Assembly (NCBI GenBank): GCA_964403095.1
Contig: CAYOFS010000002.1
Location: 1 to 50,619, forward strand
Reading direction: 5' to 3'
DNA length: 50,619 nt
Origin: an uncultured Flavobacteriaceae bacterium
GTDB taxonomy: Bacteria > Bacteroidota > Bacteroidia > Flavobacteriales > Flavobacteriaceae
The notes beneath the pieces are model-generated. The model worked only from the letters and a program-made list of their open reading frames with translations. It was not told the origin of the DNA and did not search any database. Below, in pieces: positions 138 to 24,473 of the stretch (its first letter is position 1; every line of letters begins with the position of its first letter). A program made the translations under genes and the position numbers.

Positions 138-3100
138 TTATATAGCTTTAAGTACTTGTAACGCTTTATCTACACTATCGATTCTTATAAAAGTAATAAG
201 CAAACGCAAACCCTGTTTAGTTTCTTTTTCTTTCATTACGCAAGTGGTTTTATTGTTTTGTACATAGGTCAATATACGTGTAAATTTATCGCTATTATAA
301 AAATCAGATTGCTGGTTACCTACAAAATAGCCTATCATTCTTTTTTGTTTTAGGATGATTTTTTCCAATCCAAATTTTCTTGCCAGCCATTTTATTTTAA
401 CCGAGTTTAGTAAATCAACTACAGGTGTTGGAATTTCACCAAAACGGTCTGTTATATTTTTTTCAAATAATAGCAATTCGGCTTCCGATTCAATGATGCT
501 TAATTCCTCGTAAAGCGTTAATCTTTCCGATATAATCGAAATATAATCATCTGGTATTAAGATTTCAAAATCGGTATCTAATTGCACTTCTTTTACATAA
601 TTCTTAATTTTATCGTTTTGTTCTTCTTTGTATAATTCCTTAAATTCTGTTTCTTTTAATTCTTCAATAGCTTCATTTAATATTTTTTGATAGGTATCAA
701 AACCAATATCGTTTATAAAACCACTTTGTTCGCCACCAAGTAAATCTCCTGCTCCACGAATTTCTAAATCTTTCATAGCAATATTTAATCCGCTACCAAG
801 CTCATTAAATAAAATTAAAGCTTCAATACGTTTTCTAGCATCAGTACTCATCATATGGTAAGGCGGCGTTATAAAATAACAGAAGGCTTTTTTGTTTGAT
901 CTACCAACACGACCACGCATTTGATGTAAATCACTCAAGCCAAAATTATTGGCGTTATTTATAAAAATAGTATTCGCATTTGGCACATCTAAACCACTTT
1001 CAATAATGGTTGTAGAAACCAAAACATCAAACTCATTATTCATAAAAGCAAGCATCAAACTTTCTAGTTTTTTACCTTCCATTTGTCCGTGACCAATGCC
1101 TATTTTAGCATTAGGAACTAGTCGTTGTACTAAACCAGCCACTTCTTTAATATTTTCAATTCTGTTATGGATAAAAAACACTTGTCCGCCACGAGAAGTT
1201 TCATACTGAACTGCATCACGTATGGTTTCTTCGTTAAAACGAATAACATTACTCTCAATAGGATGTCTATTTGGTGGCGCAGTAGCAATAATAGATAAAT
1301 CCCGAGCTGCCATTAAGGAAAATTGTAAGGTTCTCGGAATTGGTGTTGCTGTTAATGTTAGCGTATCAACATTTTCTTTAATGGTTTTTAGTTTATCTTT
1401 TACATTGACACCAAATTTTTGTTCTTCGTCAATAATTAACAAGCCTAAATCTTTAAATTTCACCTTTTTATTAACTAGTTGATGTGTTCCGATAACAATA
1501 TCTACCGCACCATTATCTAAGCCTTTTATAACTTCGTTTCGCTGTTTGGTTGTTCTAAAACGGTTGAGATAATCTATGGTAACTGGAAAATCTTTTAAAC
1601 GCTCCGTAAAAGTTTTGAAGTGCTGAAAAGCCAAAATAGTTGTTGGTACTAAAATAGCGACTTGTTTGCCATTATCAACAGCTTTAAACGCAGCTCTTAT
1701 GGCAATTTCGGTTTTACCAAAACCAACATCACCACAAACCAATCTATCCATTGGTCGCTCATTTTCCATATCTGCTTTTACATCTTGCGTTGCCTTGTAT
1801 TGATCTGGCGTGTCTTGGTAAATAAAACTTGCTTCTAGCTCATGTTGCATGTGTGTATCAGGTCCAAAAGCATGTCCTTTTTGCATTTTCCTTTTTGCGT
1901 ATAGCTGAATTAAATTATAAGCAACATGTTTAATTCTAGATTTTGTTTTTTGTTTAATTTTTTTCCAAACACCTGAACCTAATTTATATATTTTAGGAGT
2001 TTTCCCGTCTTTACCAGAATATTTTGATATTTTATGAAGCGAATGAATACTTATATATAGCACATCTCGTTCGCCATAAATTAATTTTATAGCTTCTTGT
2101 TTAGATGTTGTACCTTGATTTACACCAATACCTGCAATATCGATCTTTTGTAAACCGCCAAATTTTCCAATTCCATGATCAATATGCGTAACATAATCGC
2201 CTATTTGAAGATGTGTTAATTCCTTTAAAGTTATGGCTTGTTTTTTACTAAAATTGTTCTTTAAACGAAATTTGTGATACCTTTCAAAAATCTGATGATC
2301 GGTATAACAAACCAATTTTTTATCCACATCAACAAAACCTTGATACATTGGAAAAACAATGGTTTTATATTGAATTTCTTGCTCTTGATTATCCAAAATA
2401 TCGTGAAAACGTTTGGCTTGTTTTTCATTATCGCAGCAGATGATGTTTTGAAAACCTGCTTTGGTGTTTTCGTTTAAATTCTCAATAAGTAATGGGAATT
2501 TCTTATTAAAACTTGGTTGCGGTTGTGTGTTGAATTCCCATCTTCCGTCTTCCCAAAGGGAAGAAACCCCAATCTTTGTTTTGTCTTTGTTGTTGTTGTG
2601 GTGGTTTCCAACCTTGACAGTGTTATTTTTGTTGCGGTTATTAACTCTGGTAAGGTTTAAGTTAATTAAAGAAAACTCTTGTAATTGATTTAGTATTAAA
2701 TCGCCTTTACAAAATAGTGCTTTTGGTGCTGCTCGTTTTATTTCGCCTTCTAAATTTACAAAATCACGTTCTGCTTTAGTAAACAACTTATCTAAATCAT
2801 CTTTTAAATTTATTGTGTTTTTAGTAAAAACAACTGTTTTTGAAGCAATATATTTTAAAAAACTGATGCGTTTTTCTTCCAATGTTTTATTAGCAACATT
2901 TGGTAAAACACTTATTTTTTTTATTTTTTCAATGGAAAGCTGCGTTTCGACATCAAAGGTTCTTATACTATCTATTTCATCGCCAAAAAATTCTATTCGG
3001 TATGGTTCATCATTACTATACGAAAATACATCAATAATTCCACCACGAACAGCAAATTGCCCTGGCTCACTAACAAAATCAACACGAGTGAATTTATATT

Positions 3101-3584
3101 CAAATAGCATTTCGTTTATAAAATCGAGTGATAACTCTTCGCCTACATTTATTTTAAGGGTGTTTTTATCAAGTTCCGTTTTGGTAATTACTTGCTCAAA
3201 CAATGCTTGAGGATACGTAACAATTATGGCTGGTTTTCTACGTGAATTGATTCTGTTTAAAACTTCTGATCGCAATAAAATATTTGCATTGTCGGTTTGG
3301 TCAATTTCGTAAGCTCTACGATAAGAAGCAGGATAAAAAAGCAAGTTTTTTTCTCCTAAAAGTTGCTCTAAATCGTTTAAATAATAAGCAGCTTCTTCTT
3401 TGTCTTCAAAAATTAATAAAAAAGGTTTTTCGGTTTTTTTAAATACTTCGGCAATCAAAAAAGACAATGAGGAGCCAACCAAATTCGATATTTGAATTTG
3501 TTGTTTTTCCTTTTTTAATGCTTGAATAATCTGCTTTGTTTTATCAGATTGCTCAAATTTTGTAGTAATTACTTGGTGTGTCAA
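138..3584 (-). CDS. mfd: Transcription-repair coupling factor Mfd (SF2 helicase)
   Basis: 1148-aa ORF with Walker A GDVGFGKTE, DEEQ box (IIDEEQKFGV), helicase motif HQMRGRVGRS, and typical TRCF length and architecture. Confidence 0.95.
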   Translation of the reverse strand: MTHQVITTKFEQSDKTKQIIQALKKEKQQIQISNLVGSSLSFLIAEVFKKTEKPFLLIFEDKEEAAYYLNDLEQLLGEKNLLFYPASYRRAYEIDQTDNANILLRSEVLNRINSRRKPAIIVTYPQALFEQVITKTELDKNTLKINVGEELSLDFINEMLFEYKFTRVDFVSEPGQFAVRGGIIDVFSYSNDEPYRIEFFGDEIDSIRTFDVETQLSIEKIKKISVLPNVANKTLEEKRISFLKYIASKTVVFTKNTINLKDDLDKLFTKAERDFVNLEGEIKRAAPKALFCKGDLILNQLQEFSLINLNLTRVNNRNKNNTVKVGNHHNNNKDKTKIGVSSLWEDGRWEFNTQPQPSFNKKFPLLIENLNENTKAGFQNIICCDNEKQAKRFHDILDNQEQEIQYKTIVFPMYQGFVDVDKKLVCYTDHQIFERYHKFRLKNNFSKKQAITLKELTHLQIGDYVTHIDHGIGKFGGLQKIDIAGIGVNQGTTSKQEAIKLIYGERDVLYISIHSLHKISKYSGKDGKTPKIYKLGSGVWKKIKQKTKSRIKHVAYNLIQLYAKRKMQKGHAFGPDTHMQHELEASFIYQDTPDQYKATQDVKADMENERPMDRLVCGDVGFGKTEIAIRAAFKAVDNGKQVAILVPTTILAFQHFKTFTERLKDFPVTIDYLNRFRTTKQRNEVIKGLDNGAVDIVIGTHQLVNKKVKFKDLGLLIIDEEQKFGVNVKDKLKTIKENVDTLTLTATPIPRTLQFSLMAARDLSIIATAPPNRHPIESNVIRFNEETIRDAVQYETSRGGQVFFIHNRIENIKEVAGLVQRLVPNAKIGIGHGQMEGKKLESLMLAFMNNEFDVLVSTTIIESGLDVPNANTIFINNANNFGLSDLHQMRGRVGRSNKKAFCYFITPPYHMMSTDARKRIEALILFNELGSGLNIAMKDLEIRGAGDLLGGEQSGFINDIGFDTYQKILNEAIEELKETEFKELYKEEQNDKIKNYVKEVQLDTDFEILIPDDYISIISERLTLYEELSIIESEAELLLFEKNITDRFGEIPTPVVDLLNSVKIKWLARKFGLEKIILKQKRMIGYFVGNQQSDFYNSDKFTRILTYVQNNKTTCVMKEKETKQGLRLLITFIRIDSVDKALQVLKAI

Positions 3585-3704
3585 CTGTCTATTTGTTTAT
3601 TTGTTGATACGTTTATTTGTGGCAAATATAGATTTATTCTTGATGCTATTAGTTATTTTATCTGATTTTGACAAACAAACGATAAATTGTATTAAAACAA
3701 TAAT

Positions 3705-3934
3705 TTATTTTAGTACAAGCTTTATATCCTTTAAATAATCCGTACAAACATCTTTTATAGTTGTTTCAAGACTTTCAAATTCAAAATTCAAATCGTTTTT
3801 AATTTTATCAGAAGAATATTGGTATTTACTTAAAGAAGCACTTGCTGAATGTTTGGTAATCATAGGTGTTTTTCTGGTAATAAAACTTTTAATTGCTTCT
3901 AATCGCCAAGCAACATTACTTAGTGTTTTACCTA
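3705..3934 (-). pseudogene. Orphan 3'-terminal fragment of the NAD-dependent epimerase gene (duplicate of the end of 5084..6121)
   Basis: On the minus strand 3735..3934 encodes the same ~66 C-terminal codons as the intact gene (GKTLSNVAWRLEAIKSF...KDVCTDY). It then continues into a different but related tail (LKDIKLVLK, stop at 3705-3707) where the intact gene has VKDLE-stop. There is no start codon, and an in-frame stop lies just upstream at 3954-3956. Confidence 0.85.
3735..3934. repeat. Direct repeat copy 1 (200 bp, identical to 5102..5301)
   Basis: Base-by-base comparison of 3735..3934 with 5102..5301 shows 200/200 identity. Weaker similarity (about 8 of 11) extends to 3724/5091, and similarity ends abruptly after 3934/5301. 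Confidence 0.95.
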
Positions 3935-3985
3935 TTAAAAATAAGTAAGGAAATCAATAAACTTTATTGAAAATTTAATTAATTG

Positions 3986-3993
3986 TATATTTG
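3986..3993 (+). promoter_or_regulatory. Bacteroidota-type -7 promoter box TAtaTTTG for the RhuM-Doc gene
   Basis: tatatttg matches TAnnTTTG and ends 4 nt before the ATG at 3998, which implies a leaderless or near-leaderless mRNA. It lies inside the unique part of the cassette. Confidence 0.5.
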
Positions 3994-3997
3994 TAAT

Positions 3998-4990
3998 ATG
4001 GAGAAATCTGAAATACGAATATACAAAAACCCCAATGGAAATACTTCAATTGAAGTCAAATTAGATAACGAAACTGTTTGGCTTAATCAGTATCAACTTG
4101 AAGCACTTTTTCAAACAGATAGAACCTCTGTAAATCGACATATCCGAAATATTTATAAGACGGAAGAACTTGACGAAAACCGAACTTGTGCAAAAATTGC
4201 ACAAGTTCAAAAAGAAGGAAAAAGAACAATTAAAAGAAGTATTAAATATTATAATTTAGATGTAATTATTGCTGTTGGATACAGAGTTAATTCAAAACAA
4301 GGTACTGAATTTAGAATTTGGGCTAATCAATTACTTCGAGAATATCTTATCAAAGGATTTACTATAAATCAAGAGAAATTAGAAAAACAAAACAAACAAT
4401 TACTTGAACTCAAAGAAACTGTAAAAATATTGAGTAATGTTGTTTCAGATAAAGAATTATCAAATGATGAAAGTAAAGGTCTTTTAGATATAATTTCTGA
4501 TTATTCTTACGCTCTTGATGTTCTTGATAAATATGATTATCAATCATTAAGTATTGAAAACATTACAACAAATGAATTATACCAATTAACATATAAAGAA
4601 GCGATACTTCAAATACAATTAACAAAAAGAGTTTATGGAAATAGTGATTTGTTTGGACACGAAAAAGACAAATCATTTAGGAGTTCAATAGCGACTATTT
4701 ATCAAACTTTTGGAGGAGTAGATTTGTACCCAAGTATTGAAGAAAAAGCTGCCAATTTATTATATTTTGTTGTCAAAAATCATTCATTTTCAGATGGAAA
4801 CAAACGAATTGCAGCGTTCTTGTTTCTATACTTTCTTGAAAAAAATGGAATATTGAGAACCGATAAAGGAGAAAAAAGAATCGCAGATAATACATTAGTA
4901 GCATTAACATTAATGATTGCAATTAGTAAACCAGAAGAAAAAGATACTATGGTTAAAATTATAGTGAATTTAATAAATAAGAATAATTAA
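3998..4990 (+). CDS. RhuM-family N-terminal domain fused to a Fic/Doc (death-on-curing type) C-terminal domain
   Basis: The N-terminus (EIRIYKNPNGNTSIEVKLDNETVWLNQYQLEALFQTDRTSVNRHIRNIY...YYNLDVIIAVGYRVNSKQGTEFRIWANQLLREYLIKGF) is the typical RhuM family signature. The C-terminal region carries HSFSDGNKR (nt 4781..4807), which fits the Doc variant HxFx(D/N)(A/G)NKR. Start moved from the TTG at 3983 in the ORF track to the ATG at 3998. Confidence 0.85.
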   Translation: MEKSEIRIYKNPNGNTSIEVKLDNETVWLNQYQLEALFQTDRTSVNRHIRNIYKTEELDENRTCAKIAQVQKEGKRTIKRSIKYYNLDVIIAVGYRVNSKQGTEFRIWANQLLREYLIKGFTINQEKLEKQNKQLLELKETVKILSNVVSDKELSNDESKGLLDIISDYSYALDVLDKYDYQSLSIENITTNELYQLTYKEAILQIQLTKRVYGNSDLFGHEKDKSFRSSIATIYQTFGGVDLYPSIEEKAANLLYFVVKNHSFSDGNKRIAAFLFLYFLEKNGILRTDKGEKRIADNTLVALTLMIAISKPEEKDTMVKIIVNLINKNN

Positions 4991-5083
4991 TAACACTCGC
5001 TAATAAAATGTAAATGTAATTGGGGTTTTGTGATAAATACAAGTTTAGTAAGTACTTTAAGTTGGCTACTATTCTTAAATTAA

Positions 5084-6121
5084 TCATTCCAAATCTTTTA
5101 CATAATCCGTACAAACATCTTTTATAGTTGTTTCAAGACTTTCAAATTCAAAATTCAAATCGTTTTTAATTTTATCAGAAGAATATTGGTATTTACTTAA
5201 AGAAGCACTTGCTGAATGTTTGGTAATCATAGGTGTTTTTCTGGTAATAAAACTTTTAATTGCTTCTAATCGCCAAGCAACATTACTTAGTGTTTTACCT
5301 ACTTTTATTGTTGGTCGGTTTTTATTAAAAGCATCGGTAATTTTAAAAAATAAGCTTTTAAACGAACTATTTTCTGATACTAAAATATATCTTTCGTTTA
5401 TAATTTTACTATTCATTAAATCAATCATGGCTTTTACAACATCTTTTACACCAACAAAACCTGTAATTCCTTCCGTGTAAAAGTTAAAGTCGTTATAGAA
5501 TTTTTTAAATAATTCACCAGGTCCATTCTGCCAAAATCCCGAGCCTAAAATCACACCAGGATTTACCATTACAATATCTAAACCTTCTTGAGTTGCTCGC
5601 CAAACTTCCATTTCGGCACCATATTTAGTAATGGCATAACCGTAATTGTTGGTTTCACTATTCCATTCGTTTGTTTCGTCAATTAATTGTGATATTTTAT
5701 CTTTTTTAGAAGACAAAAGATGTGCTTTTTTTTCAATAGTAGCAATGGAACTTACAAAACAAAATTTTTCAATTTTATTAGCTATGGCTAAATTTACCAT
5801 ATTTGCTGTGCCTTCAATATTTGTTTTTCGCATTTGCTTATAATCTATTTTGTCAAATGAAACTATTGCTGCACAATGATAAACATGAGTTATATTTTCA
5901 AACGCTTTTTCAAGCGATGGAACATCAATAACATCAGACTCAATCCATTCAATTTTTTCAAAGTGAGTTTTAAAATCATCGGTATAATAACTAAAAACAT
6001 TCTCAACTGCCTTTAAATTACTATTTTTTCTATGTATTGCACGAATTTTATCTTCGGTTAAAGATAATTTATATAATAAATGCGAACCGACTAAACCTGT
6101 TCCTCCTGTTACTAAAATCAT
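5084..6121 (-). CDS. NAD-dependent epimerase/dehydratase family protein (SDR, dihydroflavonol-reductase-like)
   Basis: N-terminal Rossmann motif MILVTGGTGLVGSHLL and a YxxxK-type SDR core (YAITKYGAE). 345 aa. Confidence 0.85.
   Translation of the reverse strand: MILVTGGTGLVGSHLLYKLSLTEDKIRAIHRKNSNLKAVENVFSYYTDDFKTHFEKIEWIESDVIDVPSLEKAFENITHVYHCAAIVSFDKIDYKQMRKTNIEGTANMVNLAIANKIEKFCFVSSIATIEKKAHLLSSKKDKISQLIDETNEWNSETNNYGYAITKYGAEMEVWRATQEGLDIVMVNPGVILGSGFWQNGPGELFKKFYNDFNFYTEGITGFVGVKDVVKAMIDLMNSKIINERYILVSENSSFKSLFFKITDAFNKNRPTIKVGKTLSNVAWRLEAIKSFITRKTPMITKHSASASLSKYQYSSDKIKNDLNFEFESLETTIKDVCTDYVKDLE
5102..5301. repeat. Direct repeat copy 2 (200 bp, identical to 3735..3934), inside the 3' end of the intact epimerase gene
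   Basis: See copy 1. Perfect identity was read directly from the sequence. Confidence 0.95.
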
Positions 6122-23042: not shown

Positions 23043-24473
23043 ATGAAACATTTAAAAAGAATTTTATTCGTGTTTTTAATCGTTTTTACGGTTAACAGCT
23101 TACAAGCTCAGGATGAAAATAATCCATGGGCATTAGATTTCGGTACAAATGCCGTTGATTTTTTCCCAACAAATCACCCTTCAATCATCAGTGCAAATGG
23201 AGATAGCGCTGGTTGGTTAGATGAATTTGCAAATGCAAGAGATCATTACAACTTATTAGCAAGTCCAATTTCTAGAATTCATGTTGGTAAATATATTGCT
23301 GATGGATTTTCTTTAGGAGCAGGAGCGTCTTTTAACAACATTACTAAAATTGGTGAAATGTCAGTTTCTGACATGGCTTATATCGGTTTAGATATGGATA
23401 TTAGATATGCATTAAATAATGTAGTATTGAAAAATGTAAAATGGCTTGATCCTTATGTGTCATTTGGTGGTGGTTACACTATGATAGATGACGAAGGTAA
23501 CGGGACTTTAAATGGAGGTTTAGGTACTAACTTATGGTTTACAGATAACTTAGGTCTTAATGTACAAACAAACTACAAGCATTCATTTGATGACACGAAA
23601 CAATTACCTCATTTCCAACACGCTTTGGGTTTAATAGTTAAATTTGGTGGAGTAGATACTGATGGTGATGGTATATATGATAAAGATGATGCTTGTCCAA
23701 AAGTAGCAGGTTTAGAAGCTTTTAATGGCTGTCCTGATACTGATGGTGATGGTATAAAAGATTCTGAAGATTCTTGTCCTAATGTAGTTGGTACTGCAGC
23801 AATGAATGGTTGTCCTGATACAGATCAAGACGGTATAGCTGATAAAGATGATGCTTGTCCAAAAGTTAAAGGAACTAAAGCTAACAACGGTTGTCCAGAT
23901 AGTGATAACGATGGTGTTATAGATTCAAAAGATAAATGTCCAAAAGAAAAAGGAGCAAAAGCTAATAACGGATGCCCTTGGCCAGATACTGATGGTGATG
24001 GTGTATTAGATAAAGATGATAACTGTCCAAAAGTTAAAGGTCTTAAATCTAACAAAGGTTGCCCTAAAGTAGAAGAAGTTAAAACGGTTGTAGCAGCTCC
24101 AGCAGTTGTAATGACAAAAGAAGATACAGCTAAGTTAGACTCTTATGCAAAAACTATTTTCTTTAATTCAGCTAGATCTTCTTTCAAAACAGGAGTTGCT
24201 GCTAAATTACAAGGTATTTATGAAATTATGCATAAATATCCAAATGCTAACTTTAGTATTGATGGTCATACAGATAGTCAAGGTTCTAATGCTTTGAATA
24301 AAAAATTATCTCAAAAAAGAGCTGATGCTGTGAAAGCTTACTTAGTAGGTAGAGGTATGAGTTCAGTAAGATTATCATCTTATGGTTTTGGTGAAGATTA
24401 CCCAATTGACACTAACAAAACTAGTAAAGGTAGAGCAAACAACAGAAGAGTAGAAATTAGATTAATAAAATAA
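23043..24473 (+). CDS. OmpA-family outer-membrane protein with thrombospondin type 3 (TSP3) repeats
   Basis: Signal peptide, N-terminal barrel region, five DxDxDG-type TSP3 repeats with CP..GC pairs, and a C-terminal OmpA peptidoglycan-binding domain (GHTDSQGS...NRRVEI). Confidence 0.9.
23655..24065 (+). repeat. Five tandem ~81-bp coding repeats (TSP3 units)
   Basis: gatactgatggtgatggt recurs at 23655, 23736 and 23985, with diverged units at 23817 and 23898. A 26-nt block (gataaagatgatgcttgtccaaaagt) occurs twice. Confidence 0.85.

Follow-up and report, generated by a model that had tools for sequence, protein, structure and literature searches.

Transformation-driven merodiploidy by an interchromatid route was shown in pneumococcus (Johnston et al. 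2013, PMC3784515), while homology-facilitated illegitimate recombination (HFIR) and C-terminal displacement were described in a displacement model for effector loci (Kirchberger et al. 2017, PMC5361080). Orphan 3′ modules are known from rhs, cdi and type VI secretion system effector loci (Jackson et al. 2009; Kirchberger et al. 2017, PMC5361080), and chromosomal integrons have been presented as stores of defence genes (Darracq et al. 2024, preprint, 10.1101/2024.07.02.601686). The present work deals with a 50,619-nucleotide (nt) stretch of DNA from an uncultured Flavobacteriaceae bacterium (GenBank assembly GCA_964403095.1, contig CAYOFS010000002.1, positions 1 to 50,619, forward strand), hereafter the window, in which a single gene for a RhuM-Doc protein, a candidate toxin, is bracketed by two direct copies of a 200-bp stretch (called H) from the 3′ part of the neighbouring epimerase gene. 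One copy belongs to the intact gene, and the other is an orphan fragment on the side of mfd, the gene of the transcription-repair coupling factor. We read this locus, at a probability of about 0.6, as a recombination scar of the insertion-duplication type, left by homologous exchange together with one illegitimate join, and not as an autonomous element.

Compared with Campbell-type or additive integration, the locus has in common the A-H-X-H-B layout, an empty allele with a single H, alleles partitioned at a crossover block and the lack of a dedicated recombinase: an insert between direct copies and a single-copy allele are both found, as is a reciprocal partition of donor and recipient alleles. 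It differs from the Campbell-type and merodiploid cases in being a natural event of 1.4 kb at the end of a housekeeping gene, for which the incoming DNA would have carried a pre-formed illegitimate junction. As for HFIR, the homologous anchor is clear, either the epimerase gene or mfd.

The topology of C-terminal displacement is also shared, as a new 3′ end and its cargo push the old end downstream and the orphan keeps homology to the main gene, but the locus is no member of that class. Its gene encodes an SDR epimerase and not a toxin/immunity pair, the two alternative tails have 5 and 9 residues without a functional module, and the cargo lies on the opposite strand and is unrelated to the gene. 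Integrase-borne islands at gene 3′ ends (tRNA, tmRNA and protein-gene att sites) likewise have terminal direct repeats and a replacement 3′ end; here, in contrast, no integrase was found in the window (20 of the 30 other large ORFs scanned), the supposed att site amounts to plain homology over 200 bp, or 49 bp in sister strains, amid diverged homology, and a related chromosome supplied the allele that forms the replacement end. A repeat whose extent varies between 49 and 200 nt and that is flanked by diverged homology is typical of homologous, not of site-specific, exchange.

Anatomy of the locus

Positions 3735..3934 and 5102..5301 of the window, both on the minus strand, are identical at 200 of 200 positions, as seen by a repeat search and by direct string comparison, which agrees with the perfect repeat reported in an initial annotation made from the sequence alone. 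With looser ends, the pair covers 3726-3934 and 5093-5301 (209 nt, 99%). It is the sole long dispersed repeat of the 50.6-kb window, the other repeat family being a tandem array of thrombospondin type 3 repeats at 23648-24064, and chance cannot be the source of an exact match of 200 nt. That array belongs to a gene at 23043-24473 for an OmpA-family protein, with five tandem repeats of 81-87 nt.

Open reading frames (ORFs) and Pfam matches support the earlier assignment of the two copies. The second copy (5102..5301) lies within an intact gene for an SDR-family NAD-dependent epimerase/dehydratase of 345 amino acids (aa; 5084..6121, minus strand; Pfam Epimerase and NAD_binding_4), which from 5093 onward is 99.7-99.8% identical to the empty-site alleles described below and stands in the order tyrS-epimerase-mfd that is kept in relatives. 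The orphan (3705..3934, minus strand) is a 3′ fragment of the same gene without its upstream part, and its H copy (3735..3934) consists of a 49-nt block (3735-3783) and a 151-nt part (3784-3934). Beyond H, the two ends are related but different, as had been noticed, and the replacement 3′ end proved homologous to the displaced one. The orphan ends in ...DYLKDIKLVLK*, where the displaced native tail (LKDIKLVLK and stop, 3705..3734, minus strand; tail_c) is the same as in a 349-aa allele (P0244, contig L096) and one residue off two others (P0001, P0241). The intact gene ends in ...DYVKDLE*, and the tail it now uses (VKDLE and stop, 5084..5101, minus strand; tail_e) is homologous to the tail ...LKDLE of a more distant epimerase (P0002, contig L008). 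On the far side of the orphan, the native epimerase-mfd spacer (3585..3704) runs on with it in the alignments to four empty-site contigs (L007, L094, L095 and L096, up to 3934, 99.1-99.7%), followed by mfd (138..3584, minus strand), the left conserved neighbour, with an ORF of 1148 aa whose counterpart in L001 matches the Pfam TRCF, CarD and helicase families.

Between the copies lie 1167 bp with a single ORF, the 330-aa RhuM-Doc gene (3998..4990, plus strand), preceded by a TAnnTTTG box of the Bacteroidota −7 type at 3986..3993 (plus strand), a predicted promoter read from the sequence. No second plausible ORF is present between 3935 and 5083, so the gene is without an adjacent Phd-family antitoxin gene, and no break in base composition occurs across the region. 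The earlier statement that only the box, the gene and a replacement tail occupy this interval holds for these three, but the interval also contains a truncated attC site of an integron-type cassette (4992-~5038), as well as ~40 nt of intergenic DNA of foreign origin (5044-5083). The orphan meets the cargo DNA at a junction, J, at 3934/3935 (sequence GTTTTACCTATTAAAAATAAGTAAG), where a 15-nt linker (TTAAAAATAAGTAAG, 3935..3949) stands outside the homology to related cassettes, which begins at 3950. This linker ends in AGTAAG, a 6-mer that is found again at ~5045-5050, and is weakly similar to the L008 spacer.

Occupied and empty alleles in the population

Both junctions, together with the same protein, were found in three other metagenome assemblies (L001, sample S011, 14 kb; L002, S012, 1.3 kb; L097, S004, 1.4 kb), all of them from one sample series (BRAZ22-1, SAMN16557391); therefore, the duplication itself is real and not an artefact of a single assembly. 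A search with the epimerase also gave a 99%-identical protein of 349 aa, as expected from 345 − 5 + 9 residues, with the end ...DYLKDIKL[V/I]LK. This protein marks an empty site with the order tyrS, 349-aa epimerase and mfd in L094 (S006) and L096 (a JGI sample), and the empty arrangement is seen on the shorter contigs L095 (S001) and L007 (a Logan run) too. As reverse complements, L094 and L096 match the window up to 3934 and again from 5093 at 99.1-99.8%, and each of the four contigs holds exactly one H. The empty site that had been predicted, an epimerase gene ending in LKDIKLVLK beside mfd, thus exists in four contigs from strains of about 99-99.8% identity, and L094 and L095 share their sample series with the occupied contigs. 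In a more distant relative (L008, 82% protein identity), the epimerase gene is likewise followed directly by mfd. The scan of genome contigs for a close reference genome of the epimerase gave none, with relatives of 42-43% identity only. Taken together, the occupied and empty contigs define a presence/absence polymorphism of 1367 bp in a natural population.

The single-nucleotide polymorphisms (SNPs) in the flanks are mosaic between occupied and empty haplotypes, a pattern that shows frequent homologous exchange at the locus. The left flank of the window is L096-like at 1443, 2388-2394, 2943 and 3716, and that of L001 is L094-like at 1443, 2388-2394 and 2943. Within mfd, a tight cluster of five substitutions at 2388-2394 splits the sequences into the pairs window plus L096 and L001 plus L094. 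L094 alone has the clusters at 2100-2145 and 2478-2523, and L096 alone has that at 2244-2382. Such clusters are apparently mosaic recombination tracts, situated in a putative low-complexity insert of mfd. The same chromosomal neighbourhood was also seen in a relative of about 71% identity (L098:1-9345, JGI Ga0366841_1009930), where a frameshift splits the epimerase into 207 and 114 aa and the tyrS side is preceded by reverse transcriptase, Cas1, Cas2, Cap15-like and 2′-5′ RNA ligase-like genes, forming a defence cluster.

A diverged orphan in the sister assemblies

The comparison of L001 with the window gave 99.6% identity over 11 kb with 41 differences, 19 of which fall in 3784-3955 (17 in the orphan and two in the first 21 nt past J). 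The L001 orphan is 90.9% identical to the intact copy, and continuous identity covers only the 49 nt of 3735-3783, equal to 5102-5150. The L097 orphan is the same as that of L001, and L002 carries most of those changes over the part it covers (from ~3855), in addition to a 10-bp deletion. Read in frame, the diverged patch has nine synonymous and eight non-synonymous changes, against a chance expectation of 20% synonymous (p=0.003), and at four of the 17 diverged sites it carries the base of L008 (at two of them also that of L098), the native allele being derived there. Owing to this excess of synonymous changes and to the outgroup states, the patch is a functional epimerase allele from another lineage; the possibility that the orphan is a decayed native copy was rejected on the same grounds.

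The order of the alleles in L001 is reciprocal: the orphan consists of 150 nt of foreign type, the 49-nt block and the native tail, and the intact gene of 150 nt of native type, the same block and the foreign tail. The cassette is therefore flanked by foreign DNA, namely the 150 nt adjoining J and, at its other end, the replacement tail and its spacer, with native DNA beyond. A single reciprocal crossover in the 49-nt block would yield exactly this, between a native chromosome and a donor with the order foreign 150 nt of H, block, replacement tail, spacer, cassette, 15 nt and J.

These sister sequences bear directly on the age of the event. The perfect identity of the repeat had been taken as a sign that the event is recent, a view that does not stand, as three other occupied assemblies have the same junction with an orphan of 90.9% identity and only 49 nt of continuous identity. 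The 200/200 identity in the window is best explained by a secondary homogenisation of its orphan. The empty-site contig L007 shares with the diverged orphans the base equivalent to 3784 (F to Y), the first variable site beside the 49-nt block. L007 as a direct excision product was rejected, because its tail allele is KLILK, compared to KLVLK in the occupied sites; its base at 3784 may be a standing polymorphism or a footprint of recombination.

Origin of the replacement tail and its spacer

When the 3′ ends are aligned in gene orientation, the replacement tail and the next ~40 nt (5101 down to 5044) prove to be orthologous to the corresponding stretch of L008, its tail and spacer (window, AGATTTGGAATGATTAATTTAAGAATAGTAGCCAACTTAAAGTACTTACTAAA; L008, GGATTTGGAATAATTTAGAAATAGTAGCCAACAAGTTCTTACTAAA). 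The local alignment score is 60, while shuffled sequences gave 18±3 with a maximum of 33, and the BLAST match to L008 begins at 5044. No comparable match to L008 was obtained with the native tail and its spacer. Consequently, the replacement end, with the foreign spacer at 5044..5083 (minus strand), is chromosomal DNA of another epimerase lineage and was not evolved by an element. The tail, spacer and attC stump are represented by GTGATAAATACAAGTTTAGTAAGTAC. It is suggested that in the donor lineage the cassette sat about 40 nt past the epimerase stop codon and that the spacer DNA travelled along with it. At the other end of the insert, the start of the orphan at J (TAGGTAAAA) loosely resembles CAGGATAAAA in the L008 spacer, an alignment that is not significant and in which L008 serves as a proxy donor. 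Together with the recurring 6-mer of the linker, this resemblance gives a hint of a join at a microhomology.

The cargo gene

The Doc-type motif HSFSDGNKR is present in the 330-aa product of the cargo gene, which matches the Pfam families RhuM (E=8e-28) and Fic/DOC (E=3e-12) and, over its full length (E=1e-140, residues 1-329 of 330), the PADLOC profile PDC-S23. The NCBIfam model DOC_P1 scored 37.1, just under its cut-off of 38.65, and a match to a Doc-family chain of solved structure (9vzc_A) was also obtained. The cargo is thereby inferred to be a single-gene candidate toxin of defence or abortive infection, a Doc-type Fic kinase joined to a RhuM domain under its own promoter, and its expression and function are predictions of the same kind. 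The TAnnTTTG box is conserved upstream in homologous cassettes at the same spacing to the ATG, and its position, 4 nt before the start codon, would imply a leaderless or near-leaderless mRNA. As in the Phd-Doc and other Fic toxins, the motif HxFxDGNKR is present, and the full-length PDC-S23 match places the protein among the candidate defence systems of that profile; it differs from Phd-Doc in that the locus is without a separate Phd antitoxin gene, the RhuM domain is fused N-terminally and the function is only predicted. In sample S004, an otherwise identical gene has a GAA to TAA change (L097:270-1016, equal to window 3998..4744) that shortens the protein to 248 aa, so that the Fic/Doc domain is lost. 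In part of the population, the cargo is dispensable or counter-selected.

Homologues of the RhuM-Doc protein, at 66-95% identity, are very common in metagenomes. Most of their clusters (P0121-P0240) are found only on contigs of 1-3 kb, and assemblies seem to break systematically around this family, as expected for repeat-flanked or strain-variable cassettes. Neither junction J nor the protein was found by scans of viral contigs, which gives no sign of carriage by phages, and the plasmid matches were distant RhuM/Fic/DOC proteins of at most 47% identity. A RhuM/Fic/DOC gene of 42% identity on the Vibrio anguillarum replicon p292 (L099, 177245-192192) lies among small same-strand hypothetical genes with flanking IS66 copies, a stretch that looks like a cassette array on this 292-kb replicon. 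A further arrangement was noticed in three loci (L057:430-2185, L041:5761-7360 and L042), where a RhuM-Doc homologue of about 71% identity is placed between direct copies of the 5′ part, with upstream DNA, of a minus-strand gene of 83 aa (MWKQYFKF..). The copies are 81-99% identical over 92-265 bp, and the left junction of L057 reads ACG|TTAAAAAA, or CTACG|TTAAAAAATTTGAG in its longer form. These loci may be a second case in which the duplicated end of a neighbour gene encloses a cassette.

Integron-cassette ancestry of the cargo

Eighty JGI loci with RhuM-Doc homologues were fetched, and many of them have direct repeats flanking the gene. In the loci examined in detail, most of these repeats are units of cassette arrays and not gene duplications. 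One of them (L075:1-7172) has nine copies of a GC-rich repeat of ~136 nt between small same-strand ORFs, and another (L013:1-9000) is similar; both look like attC cassette arrays in Bacteroidota-like contigs, and no integrase was seen in the fetched stretches of the two. The closest complete homologues of the window copy (L089 and L090) are 95% identical in amino acids and 90% in nucleotides, the latter over 3950-5031, and the homology to a third (L014) covers 3962-5038. The canonical form of the cassette, seen in L089-L092, is G|TTAGCGAGC, the ORF and TAACGCTCGCTAAC, followed by a hairpin of ~130 nt. In L089 and L090, the upstream boundary is ...ACG|TTAGCGAGCATAAAAAC, TAACGCTCGCTAAC stands right after the stop codon and the cassette ends ~130 nt later at ...GTGCCG|TTAG; the bottom strand of their attC folds into a long imperfect hairpin, with z=-2.2 for the full L089 attC. 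Complete attC sites with R″ and R′ boxes are present in the homologues L089, L092 and L014.

The attC boxes were further tested on 75 loci. In 27 of them, the post-stop sequence is the reverse complement, at 10 or more of 11 positions, of a CGTTA[CG]C..GC box 60-88 nt before the ATG, as expected from the circular permutation of an attC cassette, while shuffled sequences gave two of 75. The ±6 kb around each locus showed no integron integrase, and tblastn with an IntI1 query against all loci gave two weak matches only, to generic tyrosine recombinases; the link to integrons is therefore one of attC-like features and array structure only.

In the window, cassette homology is limited to 3950..~5038 (plus strand), that is, the promoter, the gene and an attC stump. 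The 5′ TTAGCGAGC box is missing, and the attC is cut after ~45 nt, leaving a degenerate R″/L″ arm only (4992..5038, plus strand, beginning AACACTCGCTAAT) that aligns to the 5′ part of the L014 and L089 attC sites. No R′ partner box for this stump is found anywhere in the window, and the stretch 4988-5090 does not fold (z=+1.0). Two candidates were tried and set aside: GTTGGCTAC at ~5057 as an R′ box, since it belongs to a native spacer orthologous to that of L008, and a start of the cargo DNA at the canonical G|TT boundary, since the homology begins at 3950 without the TTAGCGAGC box. In line with the earlier statement, no integrase or other recombinase was found near the cargo: a Pfam scan covering 20 of the 30 further window ORFs that reach 150 aa gave none (18 housekeeping-like, two without a match), tblastn of IntI1 against the 50-kb window gave no match, and the 1167 bp between the copies hold no recombinase gene, nor is there a cassette array at the locus.

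Judged from these boundaries, the cargo is a fossil integron-type cassette, truncated at both ends, which an integron integrase could no longer move. Its family has attC sites, permuted boundaries and same-strand arrays elsewhere and, like integron cassettes and the solitary ones found off integrons, it consists of a compact candidate defence gene. The window copy differs from such cassettes because it lacks most of the attC and the 5′ boundary, stands outside arrays with no integrase found nearby and has moved with chromosomal flanks by homologous recombination.

Proposed mechanism and alternative explanations

The order of the events and the topology of the intermediate, which we infer from these alleles, may be as follows. 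Two versions of the epimerase-mfd boundary would have existed in related flavobacterial chromosomes: version c, with the native tail and its own spacer, which is the empty site still present in the community, and version e, in which the replacement tail and an L008-like spacer are followed, ~40 nt after the stop codon, by a decayed RhuM-Doc cassette and its promoter. An illegitimate join, which every history of the locus requires, would then have created J, linking DNA just beyond the 5′ end of the cassette to the interior of an epimerase gene, 76 codons (231 nt with the stop) before its 3′ end, possibly with the involvement of a microhomology of 9-10 nt. Homologous pairing in the flanking genes would complete the process, either as the Campbell-type single crossover of a circle, for example one popped out of a tandem duplication in the donor, or with linear DNA, in which flanking-gene homology serves as the anchor and J as the join, that is, HFIR or the merodiploid interchromatid route. 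The product would hold both versions in tandem, so that the intact gene reads into the replacement tail and the old H and native tail are displaced downstream as the orphan. The primary product was probably like L001, L002 and L097, and the window lineage would have been homogenised later, by gene conversion from the intact copy or by recombination with empty-site DNA up to J; the latter route is suggested because the left flank of the window is L096-like and that of L001 is L094-like.

Several points weigh against this order of events. In none of the collections was a parental chromosome of version e found, one that carries the cassette in its spacer but lacks an orphan, and an epimerase of about 90% identity with the foreign type of H was not found either; a search with the orphan peptide gave only a frameshifted epimerase in an unrelated contig, and an exact look-up of the 52-aa ORF gave nothing. 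The microhomology at J is weak and depends on L008 as a proxy. A block of 49 nt with no differences beside 150 nt at 11% divergence has an a priori probability of ~0.003 and is expected only if crossovers need such a block. At position 3950, the window has the canonical cassette base, G, where L001, L002 and L097 have A; therefore, the window haplotype is no simple descendant of the sampled diverged haplotypes.

This last point, and the wholly native type of the window orphan, would fit a different sequence in which J arose in the lineage of the window itself, in one homology-facilitated illegitimate event, the perfect repeat being primary and the patch of L001, L002 and L097 imported later into a population that recombines freely. 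Such an order requires a second, diverged lineage with the same J and its own allele, with extra steps of transfer or conversion, and the diverged patch is found in three of the four occupied assemblies, so that we consider it unlikely. The layout could also be attributed to assembly or polishing, since the contig comes from a metagenome bin, the 200/200 identity is seen in this contig only and other assemblies break at the repeat (L002 and L097 end inside it); either the whole duplication or just the perfect identity of the orphan, a diverged one overwritten by reads of intact or empty alleles, would then be spurious. Both junctions recur in the three other assemblies, position 3950 differs too although it lies outside the repeat, and a polishing effect behind the window's orphan is unlikely because a native-type H joined to cargo DNA needs k-mers of its own, spanning 3923G to J, which are unobtainable from diverged-orphan or empty-site reads; an artefact of either kind is accordingly held very unlikely.

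A more mobile view of the locus, closer to the initial annotation, takes the 1367-bp unit of H, cassette and surrogate tail as a minicircle without recombinase, which pops out by RecA and re-enters by a single crossover while supplying a replacement gene end. It would account for the presence/absence polymorphism within one sample series, for an insertion unlinked to the flanking SNP backgrounds and for the diverged-orphan haplotype, which is exactly as expected from one reciprocal crossover in the 49-nt block, and the second RhuM-Doc lineage bracketed by a duplicated neighbour-gene end (L041, L042 and L057) adds to its appeal. Ordinary recombination explains the unlinked flanks equally well, the unit is seen at one locus only, and we found no circle, tandem form, re-insertion or footprint of excision. 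The contigs L002 and L097, both ending inside the repeat, are loops of the assembly graph and no evidence of circles, L007 is no direct excision product owing to its different tail allele, the diverged-orphan copies share 49 nt only, so that excision would be rare, and one cargo allele (L097) is already nonsense. We therefore regard the minicircle as quite improbable, and it appears just as doubtful that decayed PDC-S23 cassettes persist and spread outside integrons as homology-addressed units of ~1.4 kb, free of recombinases and bearing a fragment of a host gene, with L041 and L057 as a second example. The excision of a 1367-bp circle remains a prediction only, and the idea of a minimal mobile toxin cassette with its own surrogate end does not hold, the cargo being a decayed integron cassette and the end hitch-hiked chromosomal DNA orthologous to that of L008.

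It was also considered that an integron integrase acting in trans had used a secondary site within the epimerase gene to insert the circular cassette, creating J. The cargo family is a true attC cassette elsewhere, and the DNA between the copies begins with TTA..., loosely like the canonical G|TTAGCG, with the L057 junction ACG|TTAAAAAA as a further resemblance. The cassette homology starts only at 3950 with the TTAGCGAGC box absent, the target is A|C and not G|TT, and the attC breaks off at ~45 nt, next to foreign chromosomal spacer and not to a GTT site; no intI was found in the window by the ORF scan (20 of the 30 other large ORFs) or by IntI1 tblastn. An integrase insertion is not known to make a duplication of 200 bp, which counts further against this origin, and we hold it to be highly improbable. 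Between the two origins that had been offered for the A-H-X-H-B layout, which is real, a homologous one of the single-crossover kind is thus retained, while the integrase route is not, given that the scanned ORFs include no recombinase and that the junction lies off the cassette boundary.

Implications

The reading of this locus as a scar of homologous exchange with one illegitimate join makes it a natural example of how a small defence or toxin gene without mobility signals still passes between related chromosomes: ordinary recombination drags the end of the neighbouring gene along and leaves an orphan fragment, and the occupied and empty alleles co-occur in the same community. The process is a known one, with no new kind of mobile element, and the current understanding is not overturned. 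Perfect identity of a repeat is no safe sign of recency, being secondary here according to the sister strains. Among Bacteroidota-like metagenome contigs, the PDC-S23 family appears, from the homologous loci, to be a common cassette of the attC type that carries its own promoter, in line with the recent view that integron arrays store compact defence genes.

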